IMG/VR virus record: IMGVR_UViG_2663763400_000006
Reading direction: 5' to 3' (one strand)
DNA length: 55,493 nucleotides
From: a virus
Lineage: Duplodnaviria > Heunggongvirae > Uroviricota > Caudoviricetes
The position numbers and the translations under genes are program-made. The notes beneath the pieces were generated by a model. That model saw only the letters and a list, made by a program, of their open reading frames with translations, ran no database searches and was not told where the DNA came from. This document shows positions 3,322-13,826 of this stretch, piece after piece; position 1 is the stretch's first letter; the number at the start of each line of letters is the position of its first letter.

Positions 3322-4103
3322 GCTGCCACCTTCTGCTCAGTGGCTTTCTGTTTCAGGAATCCAAGAGCTTTCACTGCTTCGGCCTGTGTCAGTTCTGACG
3401 AGGCGCGAATGTCGCGGCGAAATATCTGGGAACAGAGCGGCAATAAGTCGTCATCCCATGTTTTATCCAGGGCGATCAGCAGAGTGTTAATCTCCTGCAT
3501 GGTTTCATCGTTAACCGGAGTGATGTCGCGTTCCGGCTGACGTTCTGCAGTGTATGCAGTATTTTCGACAATGCGCTCGGCTTCATCCTTGTCATAGATA
3601 CCAGCAAATCCGAAGGCCAGACGGGCACACTGAATCATGGCTTTATGCCGTAACATCCGTTTGGGATGCGACTGCCACGGCCCCGTGATTTCTCTGCCTT
3701 CGCGAGTTTTGAATGGTTCGCGGCGGCATTCATCCATCCATTCGGTAACGCAGATCGGATGATTACGGTCCTTGCGGTAAATCCGGCATGTACAGGATTC
3801 ATTGTCCTGCTCAAAGTCCATGCCATCAAACTGCTGGTTTTCATTGATGATGCGGGACCAGCCATCAACGCCCACCACCGGAACGATGCCGTTCTGCTTA
3901 TCAGGGAAGGCGTAAATTTCTTTCGTCCACGGATTAAGGCCGTACTGGTTGGCGACGATCAACAATGCGATGAACTGCGCATCGCTGGCATCACCTTTAA
4001 ATGCCGTCTGGCGAAGAGTGGTGATCAGTTCCTGTGGGTCGACAGAATCCATGCCGACACGTTCAGCCAGCTTCCCAGCCAGCGTTGCGAGTGCTGTACT
4101 CAT
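3318..4103 (-). CDS. bet: Single-strand annealing protein Bet (Red beta)
   Basis: 261 aa, matches lambda Bet as recalled ([48 protein letters not shown]...); 4-bp overlap with exo. Confidence 0.95.
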
Positions 4104-4108
4104 CCGTT

Positions 4109-4405
4109 TTATACCTCTGAATCAATATCAACCTGGTGGTGAGCAATGGTTTCAACCATGTACCGGATGTGTTCTGCCATGCGCTCCTGAAACTCAACAT
4201 CGTCATCAAACGCACGGGTAATGGCTTTTTTGCTGGCCCCGTGGCGTTGCAAATGATCGATGCATAGCGATTCAAACAGGTGCTGGGGCAGGCCTTTTTC
4301 CATGTCGTCTGCCAGTTCTGCCTCTTTCTCTTCACGGGCGATCTGCTGGTAGTGACGCGCCCAGCTCTGAGCCTCAAGACGATCCTGAATGTAATAAGCG
4401 TTCAT
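4109..4405 (-). CDS. gam: Gam, host RecBCD inhibitor (short form)
   Basis: 98 aa, [60 protein letters not shown]... matches the C-terminal 98 aa of lambda Gam; no long-form N-terminal extension is open upstream. Confidence 0.9.
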
Positions 4406-4543
4406 GGATAAACTCCTGAAATTTTGATGTGCGGATCCAGACAGTGCGTTAACTGCATAGTTGTTTGAATGAACTCGCTTGATTAATCAAAATGTTGGAT
4501 CACACTATGTCTTGCTCAAAATCTGATAAATAAGGTGTCTAGA

Positions 4544-4849
4544 ATGCTGATTGATAAGTTAAAGTCTTCTCCGATGTACCCAACCGCAGAAATGGGTAAG
4601 CAGTCGAAAAAGAATCATTGGTATGTAAGGGAAAAGGGGAGTGATCAACCGCAAGACCAGACCTGGAGAGCTTGGTGGGAATCTCGCTCGCTTGGCAAAG
4701 GCCATATCAATTGGAGATCTACATGCGTAGCAGAAAATGTACTCGATCCATTCAATCCGCCATCTCGGTTTGAGGTTGATTTCAAAGCCCCTGATGGGAG
4801 TATCTACAACCTTGAATTTGCTTTGGCTCCACACGGCCCAAACAAGTGA
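4544..4849 (+). CDS. Hypothetical protein (possible moron, opposite to early-left transcription)
   Basis: ORF with ATG at 4544 preceded by AAGGTG Shine-Dalgarno (the ORF-track start at 4535 is GTG); no recognisable domain. Confidence 0.4.
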   Translation: MLIDKLKSSPMYPTAEMGKQSKKNHWYVREKGSDQPQDQTWRAWWESRSLGKGHINWRSTCVAENVLDPFNPPSRFEVDFKAPDGSIYNLEFALAPHGPNK

Positions 4850-4853
4850 GTAG

Positions 4854-5144
4854 TTAGTGGCTCAGACCACCGCCAGTACCATTCAGGTAAACCTCCACGA
4901 GCAAATCTTTTGTGTACGTTCGTTCGATGCCGCGATGCAAGTAAAGCCGACCGCGCAAATTAGCTGATGCCGTCCAGGTACCATCTTTGTGTTTAACCAG
5001 CATACCTGGCCGGACGGCACCGCGATTAACGGTCTGAGTTCCGTAATGTTGATGAACCATAAAAACTCCTGCCCGTAAGCTGGGCTGCTGAACATATAGA
5101 GACTTCTGCGCGTATTCAGGCGGTGGATGGCCGCCGGTTGTCAT
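4854..5144 (-). CDS. Hypothetical protein, first ORF downstream of the putative pL/OL
   Basis: 96-aa ORF in the position where lambda has N, but it lacks an arginine-rich N-terminal motif. Confidence 0.3.
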   Translation of the reverse strand: MTTGGHPPPEYAQKSLYVQQPSLRAGVFMVHQHYGTQTVNRGAVRPGMLVKHKDGTWTASANLRGRLYLHRGIERTYTKDLLVEVYLNGTGGGLSH

Positions 5145-5340
5145 AACTAAGCCGCCTCGTTGAAGCGACTGAGGTATGAAGTGTTGAGTTGATTTCAGCT
5201 GGTCACACCGACGTTAACGCGTCCGCTTCACCCCTCGCACTCCCCGGAGCCTGCTGAAATTCAAGCTGCGGATCTAAGCGGTCATCGCAACGGCGAATCA
5301 GGTGGTTGCCGTATCGTTGTGTTGTTGCGACATGGTGATA

Positions 5341-5385
5341 ATAGCTATTGCTATTAGTGATATCAATACTTATTGCTATTGATTG
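5341..5385. promoter_or_regulatory. Putative OL operator/pL region
   Basis: Clustered TTGCTATT / ATAGCTATT motifs (atagctattgctattagtga...tattgctattg); the same motif recurs in the cI-cro intergenic region. Confidence 0.4.
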
Positions 5386-5504
5386 ATGCATTTTGATATT
5401 AACTGTTTGATAGCAAAAGGAATTAATTTTGTGACTTGCATCGCATAGCGATAACTGAAGCGGGGGTTATGGTGGTTTTTTGAACGGTGTGTGATGAGGG
5501 GAGG

Positions 5505-5535
5505 CAAAAGAAAACCCGGCACGACGGCCGGGGAA
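5505..5535 (-). terminator. Rho-independent terminator ending the cI operon
   Basis: Inverted repeat cccggc/gccggg with a U-rich tail when read on the minus strand, immediately 3' of the 287-aa gene. Confidence 0.5.
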
Positions 5536-5536
5536 A

Positions 5537-6400
5537 TCATTTCGCATCTACAATAAATAACCTGTTTATCTGGCCTTTTTTAACAGTAGCCTTTGCGGTT
5601 ATAGTGAATACTGCAGATGGATCACCTTTGGTTGATATATATGCACTAAGAGCTCTAATATACGGGTTATTCTTCTTTCCTGCAGCTGGATCGCTAATTT
5701 CAGCAGTGATTCTCTTTTTTGAGTCATCACCATCTAAAATTATTTTAGCTGTCATATTTTGTGCATCAAATTCTGTAAGAAAAGCACGATACTCACGAAG
5801 ACCGAGAACTTCATCATCATCAAGCCTATCAATTTCAGCTTTATCTCTCTCATTAACTTTTAGAAGGCAGCCGTCAACATTTGTTGCAACACTTATCTGA
5901 TCGCAAGTATTACCAATAGGTGATACTGCCTGCCTTACAGAGGGGCGAAGCTCTACAGCCATTCGGTCAATCAAAGAGATCAACTTATCAATGGTTCCAG
6001 CATCCTTGTTTCCTAGTGCCTCTATGGCCTTTTCAAGTGACTGCTGCAAAGCTTTCATTTCATCTTTCTTGTTAGAATTTCTCGCAAAAATATATTGTAG
6101 TATTGCGCCAAGTATAGTTGCGGCGATCCCCGAGAACAACTGGTTCTGAGTGGCGAAGTTAAGAACTGCTTCAAGAGTAAAGCAGTTAGCTTTTGCTTCG
6201 CGTGCGTAAACCTTAACTTCCTGATAATTAATGTATTTACTATATTTTTGTGTAACAGAGAAAGAAGCTGCTGTTGAGAGAACTTTAGAAAAACCCTTTA
6301 GGGATTCTCCTAGGCAGTTCAAATCTATTTCATGATTTAAAGCATCTTTTCCGTCATACCTAAGAGAGATTTTTATATCCTGTAAAGCGTCACAATCCAT
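5537..6400 (-). CDS. Unknown 287-aa protein with one central hydrophobic segment, in the rexAB position
   Basis: ATG at 6400; AT-rich codon usage unlike flanking phage genes; hydrophobic segment [19 protein letters not shown]; co-directional with and 3' of cI, followed by a terminator. Confidence 0.6.
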
Positions 6401-6466
6401 AAATCGCTCTCGTCTAATTCTAATTAAATTTACTATCCCCTAAACGACTCATCAGCACAGTGCTGA

Positions 6467-7159
6467 TTATCCATGTTTCCTGTACGTCTGGGGCATGCTC
6501 CCAATAACCTTACCGAAGATGAACACCCGGTTCATCTCGTCTTTCTCGATCGGGTCCCACGGTGAGTAGCTCTTGTTATCAGAGATAACCAGCAGCTTAT
6601 CCTTCATCATTTGCAGGCGCTTTACATGGGCGGTGTCGTCGTACAGAAACGCATAGATGCCATCACCGTCGAAAGATTTAACCGTGATATCAACGAACAG
6701 CAGATCACCTGGTTCGATCGTTCCTGACATGCTGTCACCACGCACGTTAATGATGCGGATATTTTCCGCCTTCCTGCCATCGAACATGTGACGAGCATCG
6801 TCAAACGAGTACTCAACCGAGCGTAGGACTTCTACAAACTCACGGTTGATGACTCCCGGCCCAGCACTGACTTCTATATCAAGAACGTCAATCTTGAAGT
6901 ATTTGGAATGGTTGACAGTAGGCTTCCCTGATTGTTGACCGTCATTTCTCATCGGGCCTATGCCTGATGAGAGCCACTCTGTTCGAACACCCAATGCATT
7001 AGCTATTTCAACAATTTTTGTTGAGCCGCGCGCGTTGCCGCTTGTCAGTCTCCAGATTGTGGGTTGAGCTACGCCAGACGCCTTTGCAAGAGCGCCTTGA
7101 GACATCCCAGATTGTTCCATCGCTAGGTTTAAGCGATCAGCAAGAGTTTCTTTTTTCAT
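6467..7159 (-). CDS. cI: CI-type repressor (XRE helix-turn-helix plus S24 LexA-like autopeptidase)
   Basis: N-terminal HTH (MSQGALAKASGVAQPTIWRL), C-terminal peptidase motifs (VRGDSMSGTIEPGDLLFVD ... HVKRL); start taken at MKKETL (7159), the ORF could extend to 7216. Confidence 0.85.
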   Translation of the reverse strand: MKKETLADRLNLAMEQSGMSQGALAKASGVAQPTIWRLTSGNARGSTKIVEIANALGVRTEWLSSGIGPMRNDGQQSGKPTVNHSKYFKIDVLDIEVSAGPGVINREFVEVLRSVEYSFDDARHMFDGRKAENIRIINVRGDSMSGTIEPGDLLFVDITVKSFDGDGIYAFLYDDTAHVKRLQMMKDKLLVISDNKSYSPWDPIEKDEMNRVFIFGKVIGSMPQTYRKHG

Positions 7160-7170
7160 AAGTTTTAATT

Positions 7171-7240
7171 TATACGCTTGCGTATTGATGGTCAAAACAC
7201 GTTTTGCTATTGCCATGGTTAATACGCATTGCTATTATTC
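7171..7240. promoter_or_regulatory. Putative OR operators with divergent pRM/pR
   Basis: cI-cro intergenic region holding repeated ATACGC..GCGTAT and TTGCTATT motifs shared with the putative OL. Confidence 0.45.
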
Positions 7241-7269
7241 ATTCATTGTAATACCAATAGGAATTGATA

Positions 7270-7497
7270 ATGACAAATCAAACCATTCAACTCGCAATCA
7301 GTATTACAGGTAGTCAAAAACGACTGGCAGATCTATGCGGTGTAGCCCAGCCCACTGTTTGGCGTTGGCTACACGGTGGCGGAATTGATGCCCGCTATGT
7401 AATGAAAATTGTCTCAGCCACTGGTGGAAAGATTAAGCCAGCAGATATTCGTCCCGACCTCGCACCATTGTTTAACGCGAGTAATTCTGCCGCCTAA
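7270..7497 (+). CDS. cro: Cro-like HTH repressor
   Basis: Small HTH protein (LADLCGVAQPTVWRWLHGG) divergent from cI; ATG at 7270 with AGGA Shine-Dalgarno. Confidence 0.7.
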   Translation: MTNQTIQLAISITGSQKRLADLCGVAQPTVWRWLHGGGIDARYVMKIVSATGGKIKPADIRPDLAPLFNASNSAA

Positions 7498-7521: not shown

Positions 7522-8067
7522 ATGATTATGCAACCACTTACATACCAACAGACTAGCGGATTTAGCCCGACTGCGGTGATAAATCGTTCTCAAATAAAAC
7601 AGGTGCCAGGCCACGAAAAAATTCGTGATGCCGTCCGCGCCTGGTCTGCTGAAGATAATCAGGATGTAGTTGCCGCACTCATTGTGAATGAGTATCGAGC
7701 ACAGGGCGGCGGCACCATCGATTTTCCTGATGATGTCAGTCGTGCACGCCAGAAGCTGTTCCGCTTCCTCGATAACAAATTCGATTCTGAAAAATACCGA
7801 AATAACGTGCGTGAACTGACCCCGGCAATTCTGGCGGTACTACCGCTGGAATATCGCGGCCACCTGGTTGAGCAGGATAGCTTCATGGCTCGGCTGGCTG
7901 AAATGGAAAAGGAACTCAGTGAGGCAAAGCAGGCGGTCATTCTCAACGCACCACGCCACCAGAAACTGAAGGAGATGAGTGAAGGCATTGTGTCGATGTT
8001 TCGAGTGGACCCGGATCTGGCTGGTCCATTGATGGCGATGGTCACCACCATGCTGGGGGCAATATGA
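7522..8067 (+). CDS. CII-position regulatory protein, possibly YdaT/DUF1019-like
   Basis: 181-aa ORF directly after cro and before O; family assignment is from recollection only. Confidence 0.35.
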   Translation: MIMQPLTYQQTSGFSPTAVINRSQIKQVPGHEKIRDAVRAWSAEDNQDVVAALIVNEYRAQGGGTIDFPDDVSRARQKLFRFLDNKFDSEKYRNNVRELTPAILAVLPLEYRGHLVEQDSFMARLAEMEKELSEAKQAVILNAPRHQKLKEMSEGIVSMFRVDPDLAGPLMAMVTTMLGAI

Positions 8068-8153
8068 CAGGTTCAAAAATGGCGAAAGTCGGTCTGCGGG
8101 AACAGAACCGACTTTCAGGTGCAAATCGTAACACACTCATTGCGGGAGGAATT

Positions 8154-9083
8154 ATGGCAAACACTGCTGAGATATTCAATTTTCCAGTGCCGGATGCGGC
8201 ACAAAAGGAGCCGCGCGTGGCAGATCTCGATGATGGTTATACGCGCATTGCAAATGAGTTGCTGGAAGCTGTAATGCTGGCCGGATTAACACAGCACCAG
8301 CTTCTGGTCTTCCTGGCTGTCATGCGCAAAACATATGGCTTTAATAAAAAACTGGATTGGGTGAGCAACGAGCAACTTTCCGAGTTGACCGGGATATTGC
8401 CGCACAAGTGTTCTGCTGCAAAAAGTGTTCTGGTAAAGCGTGGGATTTTTATTCAGAGCGGGCGGAATATCGGCATTAATAATGTGGTCAGTGAATGGTC
8501 AACATTACCCGAATCAGGTAAGAAAAATAAAGTTTACCTGAAAGAGGTAAATTTACCTGAATCAGGTAAAAAAAGTTTACCCAAATCAGGTAAAGACGTT
8601 TACCCGAATCAGGTAAACACAAAAGACAAACTAACAAAAGACAATATAAAACCTTTTTCGTCCGAGAATTCTGGCGAATCCTCTGACCAGCCAGAAAACG
8701 ACCTTCCTGTGGAGAAACCAGATGCTGCAATTCAGAGCGGCAGCAGGTGGGGGACAGCAGAAGACCTGACCGCCGCAGAGTGGATGTTTGACATGGTGAA
8801 GACCATCGCGCCATCAGCCAGAAAACCGAATTTTGCAGGGTGGGCTAACGATATCCGCCTGATGCGTGAACGTGACGGACGTAACCACCGCGACATGTGC
8901 GTGCTGTTCCGCTGGGCATGCCAGGACAACTTCTGGTCCGGTAACGTGCTAAGTCCGGCCAAACTCCGCGACAAGTGGACCCAACTCGAAATCAACCGTA
9001 ACAAGCAACAGGCAGGCGTGACAGCTAGCAAACCAAAACTCGACCTGACAAACACAGACTGGATTTACGGGGTGGATTTATGA
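8154..9083 (+). CDS. O: Replication initiator O
   Basis: C-terminal two-thirds near-identical to lambda O as recalled (SENSGESSDQPENDL...FAGWANDIRLMRERDGRNHRDMCVLFRWACQDNFWSGNVLSPAKLRDKWTQLEINRNK); ATG 8154 with GGGAGGA Shine-Dalgarno. Confidence 0.9.
   Translation: MANTAEIFNFPVPDAAQKEPRVADLDDGYTRIANELLEAVMLAGLTQHQLLVFLAVMRKTYGFNKKLDWVSNEQLSELTGILPHKCSAAKSVLVKRGIFIQSGRNIGINNVVSEWSTLPESGKKNKVYLKEVNLPESGKKSLPKSGKDVYPNQVNTKDKLTKDNIKPFSSENSGESSDQPENDLPVEKPDAAIQSGSRWGTAEDLTAAEWMFDMVKTIAPSARKPNFAGWANDIRLMRERDGRNHRDMCVLFRWACQDNFWSGNVLSPAKLRDKWTQLEINRNKQQAGVTASKPKLDLTNTDWIYGVDL
8505..8600. repeat. Origin iterons inside O (ori-lambda-like)
   Basis: Four direct repeats of the form atcaggtaa...tttacc(c/t)gaa inside the O coding sequence, followed by an A-rich tract. 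Confidence 0.8.
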
Positions 9084-9781
9084 AAAACATCGCCGCACAG
9101 ATGATTAACTTTGACCGTGAGCAGATGCGTCGGATCGCCAACAACATGCCGGAACAGTACGACGAAAAGCCTCAGGTACAGCAGGTAGCGCAGATCATCA
9201 ATGGTGTGTTCAGCCAGTTACTGGCAACTTTCCCGGCGAGCCTGGCTAACCGGGACCAGAACGAACTGAACGAAATCCGCCGCCAGTGGGTTCTGGCTTT
9301 CCGGGAAAACGGGATCACCACAATGGAACAGGTTAACGCAGGAATGCGCGTAGCCCGTCGGCAGAATCGACCATTCCTGCCATCACCCGGGCAGTTTGTT
9401 GCATGGTGCCGTGAAGAAGCATCCGTTATTGCCGGACTGCCAAACGCCAGCGAGCTGGTTGATATGGTTTACGAGTATTGCCGGAAGCGTGGCCTGTATC
9501 CGGATGCAGAGTCTTATCCGTGGAAATCAAACGCGCACTACTGGCTGGTTACTAGCCTGTACCAGAATATGCGGGCCAATGCGCTTACTGATACGGAATT
9601 ACGGCGCAAGGCTGCCGATGAACTGACTTGTATGACCGCGCGAATTAACCGTGGTGAGGCGATCCCTGAACCAGTAAAACAACTTCCTGTTATGGGCGGT
9701 AGACCTCTAAATCGTGCACAGGCTCTGGCGAAGATCGCAGAAATTAAAGCTAAGTTCGGACTGAAAGGAGCAAGTGTATGA
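9080..9781 (+). CDS. P: Replication protein P (helicase loader)
   Basis: 233 aa, matches lambda P as recalled; overlaps O stop. Confidence 0.9.
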   Translation: MKNIAAQMINFDREQMRRIANNMPEQYDEKPQVQQVAQIINGVFSQLLATFPASLANRDQNELNEIRRQWVLAFRENGITTMEQVNAGMRVARRQNRPFLPSPGQFVAWCREEASVIAGLPNASELVDMVYEYCRKRGLYPDAESYPWKSNAHYWLVTSLYQNMRANALTDTELRRKAADELTCMTARINRGEAIPEPVKQLPVMGGRPLNRAQALAKIAEIKAKFGLKGASV

Positions 9782-12374: not shown

Positions 12375-12692
12375 ATGGATGCTGGCGTTCTCGTTCTAGC
12401 AGTTCAACAATCCCCAATCACAAAACAATTCACTGATAACGAACTTTGCACACTCGCCTGGTTATGGCGAGCAGGGAATGTGATGTTAATTGCCTACCAG
12501 AACGTTACTCATCTTCTTCAGGATGCGGAGCATGGTGAAGCTGGTCACTTCACTTCCATCGAGCAAGAATATCCCCAGATACTCAACAGAGCGCGAGCAA
12601 TCCTCGTCCGAGAAACGGCACATGTAAAACTTCAGCCGTGGCAGGATGATAAGTGGAGTCGAGTATTGCCGTATTTGCGTCAAATCTGTTAG
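12375..12692 (+). CDS. Hypothetical protein
   Basis: 105-aa ORF with no recognisable motif; coding status uncertain. Confidence 0.25.
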   Translation: MDAGVLVLAVQQSPITKQFTDNELCTLAWLWRAGNVMLIAYQNVTHLLQDAEHGEAGHFTSIEQEYPQILNRARAILVRETAHVKLQPWQDDKWSRVLPYLRQIC

Positions 12693-12881: not shown

Positions 12882-13826
12882 TTGATAGGATCAAAAATGG
12901 CACAACAGAGAACTACCTCCCTCAGATCCATACCTTTAGACTTAGATGTTAAGCAAGAGGCTGTCATTAACGGTATAGAAATGGGGGTACTCGATAACGG
13001 AATTCCGTACCTTACTCAGAATGGGTTGGCAAATGTTTGTGGTGTTCAGCGTTTGCGAATCAAGGAAATTACCGATGAGTGGGCTCAATCTGTTGAGAAC
13101 GGTATTTTCAAAAAAGGAAGAATGACTTTTATTGGTACATATCTTCTTAATGAAGGTTTTACAGATGAAAAACTTTATATACCAATAATTCGAAATGGTG
13201 TTGAGTACCATGCTTATCCAGATGTTGTATGCATGGCTATACTTGAATACTATGCCTTTGAAGCAAAACAAGCAGAAAGTGAGACTGCAATTAGATCTTA
13301 CAGAGAGCTTGCTAAAAAAGGCCTCAAGACATTTATATACGAGGCGCTAAAATATCAACCGGAGGACCCGTGGAGGCATTACCATGACAGAGTATCTTTA
13401 TTAAAAGATAAGGGAACCATACCTGATGGGTATTTCATTATATTTAATGAAATTGCAGGTATGATGGTAGATCTCATCAATGCTGGATTAGCGATTAATC
13501 AGCATACCGTACCTGATGGCAGTGTTGGTTCTTGCTGGGCGCGTCACTGGAAAGCAAAGGGGTTAGCAACAGAATTTGGAGAAAGAGTAGACTGTGAGCA
13601 TTATTACCCTGAAGATTTTCTTCAGGCAAGTTCCAATCCTCAGATCATTAATGCCTATCCTGATTCTGCATTGTCAGAGTTTCGTAGATGGTTTAAGCAT
13701 GAATATTTAACCACAAAGTTCCCACCGTATATTCTTAAAAAATCAAACGTGCTTCCTGGTGGTACAGAAGATGCTAATCGTCTGATAGAAGCTTTCAAAA
13801 AATCAGAGCTAGAAAATAAACCATAA
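12882..13826 (+). CDS. Hypothetical 314-aa protein (accessory gene in the nin region)
   Basis: Long AT-rich ORF with an upstream AT-rich leader; no domain I can assign with confidence. Confidence 0.5.
   Translation: MIGSKMAQQRTTSLRSIPLDLDVKQEAVINGIEMGVLDNGIPYLTQNGLANVCGVQRLRIKEITDEWAQSVENGIFKKGRMTFIGTYLLNEGFTDEKLYIPIIRNGVEYHAYPDVVCMAILEYYAFEAKQAESETAIRSYRELAKKGLKTFIYEALKYQPEDPWRHYHDRVSLLKDKGTIPDGYFIIFNEIAGMMVDLINAGLAINQHTVPDGSVGSCWARHWKAKGLATEFGERVDCEHYYPEDFLQASSNPQIINAYPDSALSEFRRWFKHEYLTTKFPPYILKKSNVLPGGTEDANRLIEAFKKSELENKP

Follow-up and report, generated by a model that had tools for sequence, protein, structure and literature searches.

A DUF7946/DUF7947 gene behind the repressor of a lambdoid prophage as a candidate exclusion or abortive-infection factor

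The stretch of viral DNA considered here, IMG/VR record IMGVR_UViG_2663763400_000006 (Caudoviricetes; 55,493 nucleotides (nt), hereafter the window), carries a gene for a 287-amino-acid (aa) protein directly downstream of the cI-type repressor of a lambdoid prophage. We report that this protein belongs to the paired Pfam families DUF7946 and DUF7947, and that its relatives keep the same position behind repressors of very different phages. What could such a gene do in a lysogen? The most likely reading is a lysogen-expressed, single-protein exclusion or abortive-infection factor. In our judgement the balance tips slightly towards an anti-phage function of some kind, and a membrane abortive-infection mechanism specifically is a possible but doubtful form of it.

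The position of the gene is well defined (Table 1). It lies on the same strand as the repressor, which has HTH_3 and Peptidase_S24 domains, and 66 nt separate the repressor stop codon from its ATG. On both sides the pair is framed by clusters of operator-like sites, at 5341-5423 for the left operator (OL) and at 7199-7265 for the right operator (OR). The intrinsic terminator starts 4 nt past the stop codon of the gene and consists of a 6-bp all-GC stem (5532->5515) followed by TTTTCTTTTG; its fold of -19.1 kcal/mol (z = -3.2) was equalled by none of 200 shuffled sequences. In lambda, as the genome comparison indicates, the equivalent interval is occupied by rexA/rexB. The initial annotation, which a model had made from the letters alone, had described a co-directional gene immediately 3' of CI, located between putative OL and OR clusters, followed by a strong terminator and placed in the lambda rexA/rexB slot, and the analysis bears out this description in every part. 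The gene is also AT-rich, as had been said of it, with a GC content of 0.383 compared with 0.486 for cI and 0.493 for the window. Comparison with 91%-identical homologues gave a ratio of nonsynonymous to synonymous substitution rates (dN/dS) of 0.054-0.057, with dN about 0.05 and dS about 0.9, and the open reading frame (ORF) is a real gene under strong purifying selection.

The single perfect ATAGC-N4-GCTAT palindrome of the window is found in OL at 5341-5354, where two further sites with two mismatches each follow at 5366-5379 and 5410-5423. Across the whole window the operator motif was seen 31 times against 21.7 expected, which is not significant alone; consequently, the operator call rests on the clustering of the sites. 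At full length the repressor ORF spans 6467..7216 (249 aa), and a start at 7216 would precede the pRM-like promoter. Because the -10 element of this promoter ends so close to the RefSeq start of cI, the cI maintenance transcript may be leaderless or nearly so. The lambda maintenance transcript is likewise leaderless or nearly so. In the spacer between cI and the gene, the scan found neither a consensus promoter nor a U-tailed hairpin, and the fold was not above that of shuffled sequences (z = -1.07). A 17-nt palindrome, ATCAGCAC-A-GTGCTGAT, occurs at 6451-6467 and takes in the final base of the stop codon of cI. It lacks a following U-run and is therefore unlikely to be a transcription terminator; it might conceivably be a binding site for a protein, or an element of RNA processing or attenuation.

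In Pfam, DUF7946 matches aa 11-191 over the full profile (positions 1-183; E=3.8e-55, 187.2 bits, cut-off 27), DUF7947 matches aa 201-287 (E=1.4e-18, 67.1 bits, cut-off 27), and PHROG 5147, whose function is unassigned, matches end to end with E=1.5e-178. Both domains are present in 25 of 25 diverse members, and 497 related clusters with the same two-domain architecture were found in the 50%-identity library. Among the 150 best representatives, complete proteins mostly have about 265-320 aa and match almost the whole profile, and the shorter entries are fragment-like. Residues G17, S33, G36, P161, G163, D237, P238 and Y247, all present in the window protein, are at least 90% conserved in an alignment of 122 sequences. 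The family ranges over prophages of Enterobacterales, Neisseriales, Pasteurellaceae, Burkholderiaceae and Helicobacter. The exact protein, WP_000340376.1, occurs on at least 1000 contigs, which come from clinical and animal Escherichia coli and Klebsiella, and in 77 of 5,426 complete E. coli genomes. In the searchable literature there is no mention of DUF7946, DUF7947, PDC-S42 (a PADLOC candidate discussed below) or the accessions of the window protein and of the phi80 protein 40A. The gene had been called unknown in the initial annotation; in view of the Pfam pair and the phi80 counterpart, this applies only in part.

The slot argument gains much strength from related loci. We gathered 95 related loci from GTDB genomes, IMG/VR and exact-protein look-ups, and an S24-type repressor lies upstream in 85 of them, from Enterobacterales to Neisseriales and Pasteurellaceae. 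In 80 of the 95 loci, 14-447 nt (median 66 nt) separate the gene from the end of an S24 repressor ORF that precedes it on the same strand; in five further loci, the repressor is 600-900 nt upstream and zero to two small ORFs are inserted. The order of cI and then the gene is also found in three Morganella prophages with differing replication modules and in a Vitreoscilla prophage. At the level of 80% identity, the repressors form 28 clusters and the DUF7946/DUF7947 genes paired with them form 13, the window's own gene cluster (at least 80% identity) being paired with nine repressor clusters, and homology between loci fades within about 50-100 nt of the ORF. Given these many pairings and the end of homology near the ORF, the gene is an independently exchanged cassette that is still kept in the repressor slot, and its foreign GC content likewise marks it as an accessory cassette.

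Some members lie off the slot. For example, at Serratia marcescens locus 3446-7361 the gene belongs to an island that also carries an Abi_2 (AbiD-like) gene and a regulator of the AlpA family; no repressor adjoins it, and this island looks like a satellite or an integrative element rather than a lambdoid prophage. A Rahnella remnant lies near an insertion sequence, one Burkholderiaceae locus is off the slot as well, and in Neisseria/Helicobacter-type prophages the gene comes after portal- and scaffold-like genes in the structural region. The Abi_2 and AlpA genes in Serratia and a SIR2_2 gene in Vitreoscilla are defence-type neighbours, which we count in favour of a defence function. Several details of these loci may be recorded here. 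In the Serratia marcescens island, a 146-aa ORF without a family match comes after. In Vitreoscilla sp. C1, the SIR2_2-domain protein (537 aa, at 7661-9274) is encoded in the early-left region of the prophage, beginning about 800 nt past the DUF7946 gene. In the Erwinia sp. CGal63 locus 4188-4933, two ORFs stand between the S24 repressor and the DUF7946 gene. One encodes 177 aa with a Tlde1 domain (Pfam E=1.4e-29), the other a hydrophobic protein of 71 aa. Tlde1 is a domain of L,D-transpeptidase-like effectors of the type VI secretion system, and the two inserts could be a toxin/immunity pair in the same lysogen-expressed operon.

An outside prediction, made by machine learning, points in the same direction. 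In Tables S5 and S10 of the DefensePredictor study (Science 2026, PMC13092281), WP_000340376.1 is given as a 'Predicted novel defense gene', with mean log-odds of 6.28 over 69 strains and 7.45 over 3,000 strains against a strict cut-off of 4. In that study, 45% of the cloned predictions protected against phage (PMC13092281).

The structure of the protein was modelled with two sets of sequences. With 26 sequences, the mean predicted local distance difference test score (pLDDT) was 75.7, and with 122 diverse sequences it was 91.3, with a predicted template modelling score (pTM) of 0.75. The C-terminal domain is modelled as a closed barrel of five strands, the third and fourth of which are linked by a helix, and it superposes on known oligonucleotide/oligosaccharide-binding (OB) folds. 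Conserved residues of this domain include D212, R230, D237, Y247 and K270. The best matches include the periplasmic or surface proteins SilF/CusF, YgiW and pertussis toxin B subunits. To the OB-fold proteins compared (CusF/SilF, SSB/RPA, PriB, YgiW and pertussis toxin B), identity is 5-14% and there is no common ligand-binding motif. The ligand, be it nucleic acid, protein, sugar or metal, is not readable from the modelled fold; only the basic isoelectric point (pI) of 9.3 is suggestive of single-stranded nucleic acid binding. For the N-terminal DUF7946 domain, no solved structural relative was found. Sequence and profile searches of the PDB gave nothing below E=0.018, with just short helical stretches, and the Foldseek search against viral models returned solely uncharacterised phage proteins with a template modelling score of about 0.35.

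Two further statements of the initial annotation, that there is one central hydrophobic segment and no recognisable catalytic motif, agree with these results. The segment at aa 88-106 has a Kyte-Doolittle mean of 1.85 over 19 residues and corresponds to a modelled helix at 87-108. Over 164 members of the family, the median of the best 19-residue hydropathy is 1.68, and 58% reach 1.6. Lysine or arginine is absent from 12 of the 19 positions of the segment in these members and does not exceed 9% at any of them, and it is present at positions 107, 111 and 112 in 65-77%. Across the family, positions 88-106 are nearly uncharged, and bulky hydrophobic residues of the helix alternate with a face of glycine, alanine and serine. 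No enzyme-like fold or motif was found in the window protein. A possible catalytic triad of H23, S33 and C166, conserved at 84-95% among the 164 members, was considered and rejected; since the conservation of H23 and C166 is only 84-88%, we propose no enzyme.

Homology to known exclusion systems was sought along the lines proposed in the initial annotation, by profile searches against BstA, RexA/RexB and the Abi families, and the outcome was negative throughout. The models of RexA, RexB, BstA, SieB and Abi (AbiA-AbiZ, Abi_2, Abi_C and others) gave no match, whether in Pfam at E<=1 or in PADLOC and NCBIfam at E<=10, and hhalign with the 122-member alignment gave probabilities of 0.2% to lambda RexA, 0.1% to RexB and 0.1% to the BstA homologue of the same window. 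Like the window gene, lambda Rex is placed behind cI, ahead of the operon terminator and within the OL-OR interval, and it excludes T4 rII and other phages by depolarising the membrane; however, Rex consists of two genes with a multi-span membrane partner, whereas the window has a single ORF with one hydrophobic segment. The working principle that we propose for both joins a sensor in the cytoplasm to an effector in the membrane. BstA of the Salmonella prophage BTP1 is a single-protein defence gene directly downstream of the repressor (PMC8585504). The window gene has this single-protein, post-repressor placement in common with it but no homology, and the true BstA homologue of the window sits away from the cI-downstream slot where BstA was first described. 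That homologue is full length and lies at 12882-13826 (+) in the nin-side region (PADLOC BstA E=3.8e-121, profile positions 5-291 of 292), directly downstream of a P22_AR_C-domain ORF at 12375-12692 (+); thus the prophage holds one known defence gene in addition to the DUF7946 candidate. The sole PADLOC signal is PDC-S42, an unvalidated single-gene candidate of about 300 aa, which matches weakly and only over profile positions 4-113 of 302 (E=1.5e-4). A weak N-terminal match (best 2.4e-6) was also obtained for 12 of 25 diverse members, and any relationship to PDC-S42 would thus be distant. The NCBIfam model LAPAL_fam, 'phage structural protein', was dismissed, with 26 bits against a cut-off of 60 and a match to the N-terminal part only.

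The closest homologue in a phage record is gene 40A of phi80 (PHI80_46, AFV29182.1, Swiss-Prot P14817 'Protein 40A'), with 62% identity over the full length. Protein 40A has the same two Pfam domains, and its gene occupies the same slot, after cI and before the OL operators and pL. The immunity regions of phi80 and the window are arranged alike, and in both a YdaT-domain gene takes the place of cII; 40A is, however, a different allele beside a different repressor, and it has no assigned function. No search lent support to the note 'acetate kinase superfamily' in the phi80 record. An operon 100% identical to phi80 cI-40A is present in DH5alpha, DH10B, TOP10, NEB 5-alpha/10-beta, XL10-Gold, HST04 and JM83, the DH10B copy being located at NC_010473.1 1358581-1360294 in phi80dlacZ-deltaM15, so that all of these cloning strains carry a DUF7946/DUF7947 gene with its native repressor and promoter. 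The phi80d fragment in cloning strains retains 62% of the phage genome (PMC11148124). It has been reported that phi80 lysogens resist T4 and cut P1 tenfold, the responsible gene being identified neither there (PMC2885432) nor in the searchable literature.

How might such a protein work? We infer the following scheme, in which the defence function, the division into sensor and effector and the action at the membrane are all conjectural. The gene would be an accessory gene ('moron') of the repressor operon of a lambdoid prophage, transcribed together with cI from pRM in the lysogen, which its product would guard against other phages. In the cytoplasm, the basic C-terminal OB-fold would act as the sensor of a phage nucleic acid, a replication intermediate or a phage protein. 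The N-terminal DUF7946 domain would be a non-enzymatic effector, with its hydrophobic helix buried in the helical bundle at rest. Once triggered, the helix would enter the inner membrane and form oligomers there, and the resulting depolarisation would abort the infection. Such a protein would be a one-polypeptide functional analogue of RexA, the sensor, and RexB, the membrane effector, while being unrelated to both. In its most general form, the proposal is that DUF7946/DUF7947 proteins are a new, widespread single-polypeptide abortive-infection system of repressor operons, in which the OB-fold unlocks a latent pore-forming domain of an unseen fold; we offer it tentatively, as a conjecture that may well prove wrong.

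Several points weigh against an exclusion or abortive-infection factor, and against the membrane scheme in particular. At about 0.05, dN/dS does not point to the diversifying selection that sensors often undergo. The helix is marginal for a membrane span, at 1.85 and with a family median of 1.68; it is modelled inside the fold at pLDDT >90, the most distant members have lost it, and a classical single-span topology needs the export of an 87-residue N-terminal domain without a signal peptide. We infer co-transcription with cI from the sequence. WP_000340376.1 is outside the units cloned in the DefensePredictor study, where no validated system has the motifs of the family (PMC13092281), and the score is not independent of the slot argument, because the predictor also uses gene neighbourhood. 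For the DUF7946/DUF7947 family, no function, phenotype or structure is reported in the searchable literature. Moreover, wild-type T4 has been propagated and plaqued on DH10B (PMC4471564), which carries cI-40A, and therefore the presence of 40A in its native operon does not suffice for a T4 block in this strain. This weakens an attribution of the T4 resistance of phi80 lysogens to 40A alone, and the protective range of 40A, if any, is narrower than 'broad', conditional, or aimed at other phages such as temperate ones. The exclusion or abortive-infection role put forward in the initial annotation is consequently upheld in part: the slot kept in 85 of 95 loci and the DefensePredictor listing speak for it, and it is qualified by the negative homology searches against Rex, BstA and Abi and, as regards a broad anti-T4 activity of the phi80 homologue, by the plaquing of T4 on DH10B.

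Other explanations deserve consideration alongside this one. The protein might act in superinfection exclusion at the envelope, as a constitutive inner-membrane protein anchored by aa 88-106 that blocks the entry of phage DNA, so that the host survives. P22 SieA, T4 Imm and HK97 gp15 block DNA entry in such a manner. The slot and context evidence is the same as for abortive infection, the K/R-rich flank of the helix resembles a stop-transfer signal, and periplasmic and surface proteins are among the best OB-fold matches. However, the positive-inside rule would place the OB domain in the cytoplasm, whereby the 87-residue N-terminal domain would cross the membrane without a signal peptide; the hydrophobicity is marginal, the helix is confidently packed in the model, and there is no similarity to Sie/Imm-type models in Pfam or PADLOC. 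We regard this explanation as unlikely. It is very improbable that the gene is a selfish element of the addiction or toxin type, or a passenger that is decaying without current function: a single gene with a hydrophobic helix and no known function might suggest it, but no antitoxin-like partner consistently adjoins in most loci, and the dN/dS of about 0.05 together with the 497 clusters of identical two-domain architecture excludes decay.

Two further explanations place the function outside phage exclusion. Lysogen-expressed genes include non-defence accessory genes, and a factor of lysogenic conversion or host fitness unrelated to phages, acting for example in envelope stress, colonisation or virulence and made from the one operon that a repressed prophage keeps active, would fit among these; the occurrence of the exact protein in clinical and animal E. 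coli and Klebsiella, with at least 1000 contigs, agrees with it. A precedent is bstA, which was first tied to virulence phenotypes (PMC8585504). The hosts of the family, however, occupy very different niches, and a phage-directed function therefore fits better than one directed at the host niche; with defence-type neighbours and a high DefensePredictor score also pointing away from it, we think such a factor quite unlikely. The protein might instead regulate the prophage's own lysis-lysogeny switch or its induction, as an OB-fold factor that binds DNA or protein and is made together with cI. A role in tuning the lytic switch has been described for lambda RexA. The linkage to a repressor across very different phages, the compatibility of a basic OB-fold with DNA binding and the strong purifying selection would all accord with such a regulator. 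But the same allele (at least 80% identity) occurs with nine unrelated repressor types and with different replication modules, which argues against a specific partnership with one repressor/operator set. The gene is also found away from repressors, in the Serratia island, the Burkholderiaceae locus and the structural region of Neisseria/Helicobacter-type prophages, and its foreign GC content is that of an accessory cassette. We consider regulation of the switch improbable.

Table 1. Features of the repressor operon and of the DUF7946/DUF7947 protein (window coordinates)
Feature	Coordinates	Strand	Description
287-aa gene, DUF7946 + DUF7947 protein	5537..6400	-	ATG start; same protein as RefSeq WP_000340376.1; phi80 gene 40A is its counterpart
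N-terminal DUF7946 domain, aa 11-191	5828..6370	-	Three-stranded sheet and helical bundle in the model; acidic, pI 5.3
Conserved charge-free hydrophobic helix, aa 88-106	6083..6139	-	Followed by R/K-N-S-x-K-K
C-terminal OB-fold, aa 197-286 (= DUF7947)	5543..5812	-	Basic, pI 9.3
cI-type repressor, first gene of the operon	6467..7159	-	RefSeq start, 230 aa; HTH_3 + Peptidase_S24
cI-to-gene spacer	6401..6466	-	66 nt; GAGAG Shine-Dalgarno-like element 6 nt before ATG
Intrinsic terminator closing the repressor operon, analogue of lambda tImm	5505..5532	-	Hairpin and fold score
OL-like cluster, three operator-like sites	5338..5427		Overlaps pL-like promoter 5366->5338 (-)
OR-like cluster, three operator-like sites	7199..7265		Overlaps pR-like promoter 7210-7238 (+)
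pRM-like promoter	7167..7195	-	-10 ends 8 nt before RefSeq cI ATG (7159)
cro-like helix-turn-helix gene, divergent from cI	7270..7497	+	ORF and RefSeq

The surroundings of the operon are those of a lambdoid prophage, with the integrase of which the window starts. An identical region is found in E. coli N68, where the prophage is located at a tRNA-Arg site and adjoins folD-ybcJ-ybcI-cysS, and emrE, ybcK, ybcN and rusA are present in the prophage, as in DLP12. Beyond the pL-like promoter, a kil-like gene (PHROG 294) lies at 4854-5144. Between this promoter and the kil-like gene, no N-type antiterminator gene was recognisable; nut sites were not searched for. The sole ORF there, at 5203-5391 (-), encodes 62 aa and starts upstream of the promoter -10, and it has no Pfam or PHROG match. 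RefSeq has no annotation within 5061-5337.

Among the parts of a lambdoid prophage, only the stretch from the repressor to OL can be relied on to be expressed in every lysogen, and both Rex and BstA have come from it. Defence-type accessory genes of repressor operons are accordingly of a well-known kind, and the DUF7946/DUF7947 family, whose members fill this slot in phages from at least four orders of bacteria, is already catalogued as a DUF pair and computationally flagged. If its members are defence proteins, they would add a new sensor/effector design to the prophage arsenal. With the phi80 allele present behind its own repressor and promoter in standard cloning strains, this is unusually easy to test. 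The copy that cloning hosts such as DH5alpha, DH10B and TOP10 carry unnoticed might then be a hidden phage-resistance determinant that could bias phage isolation and host-range work.

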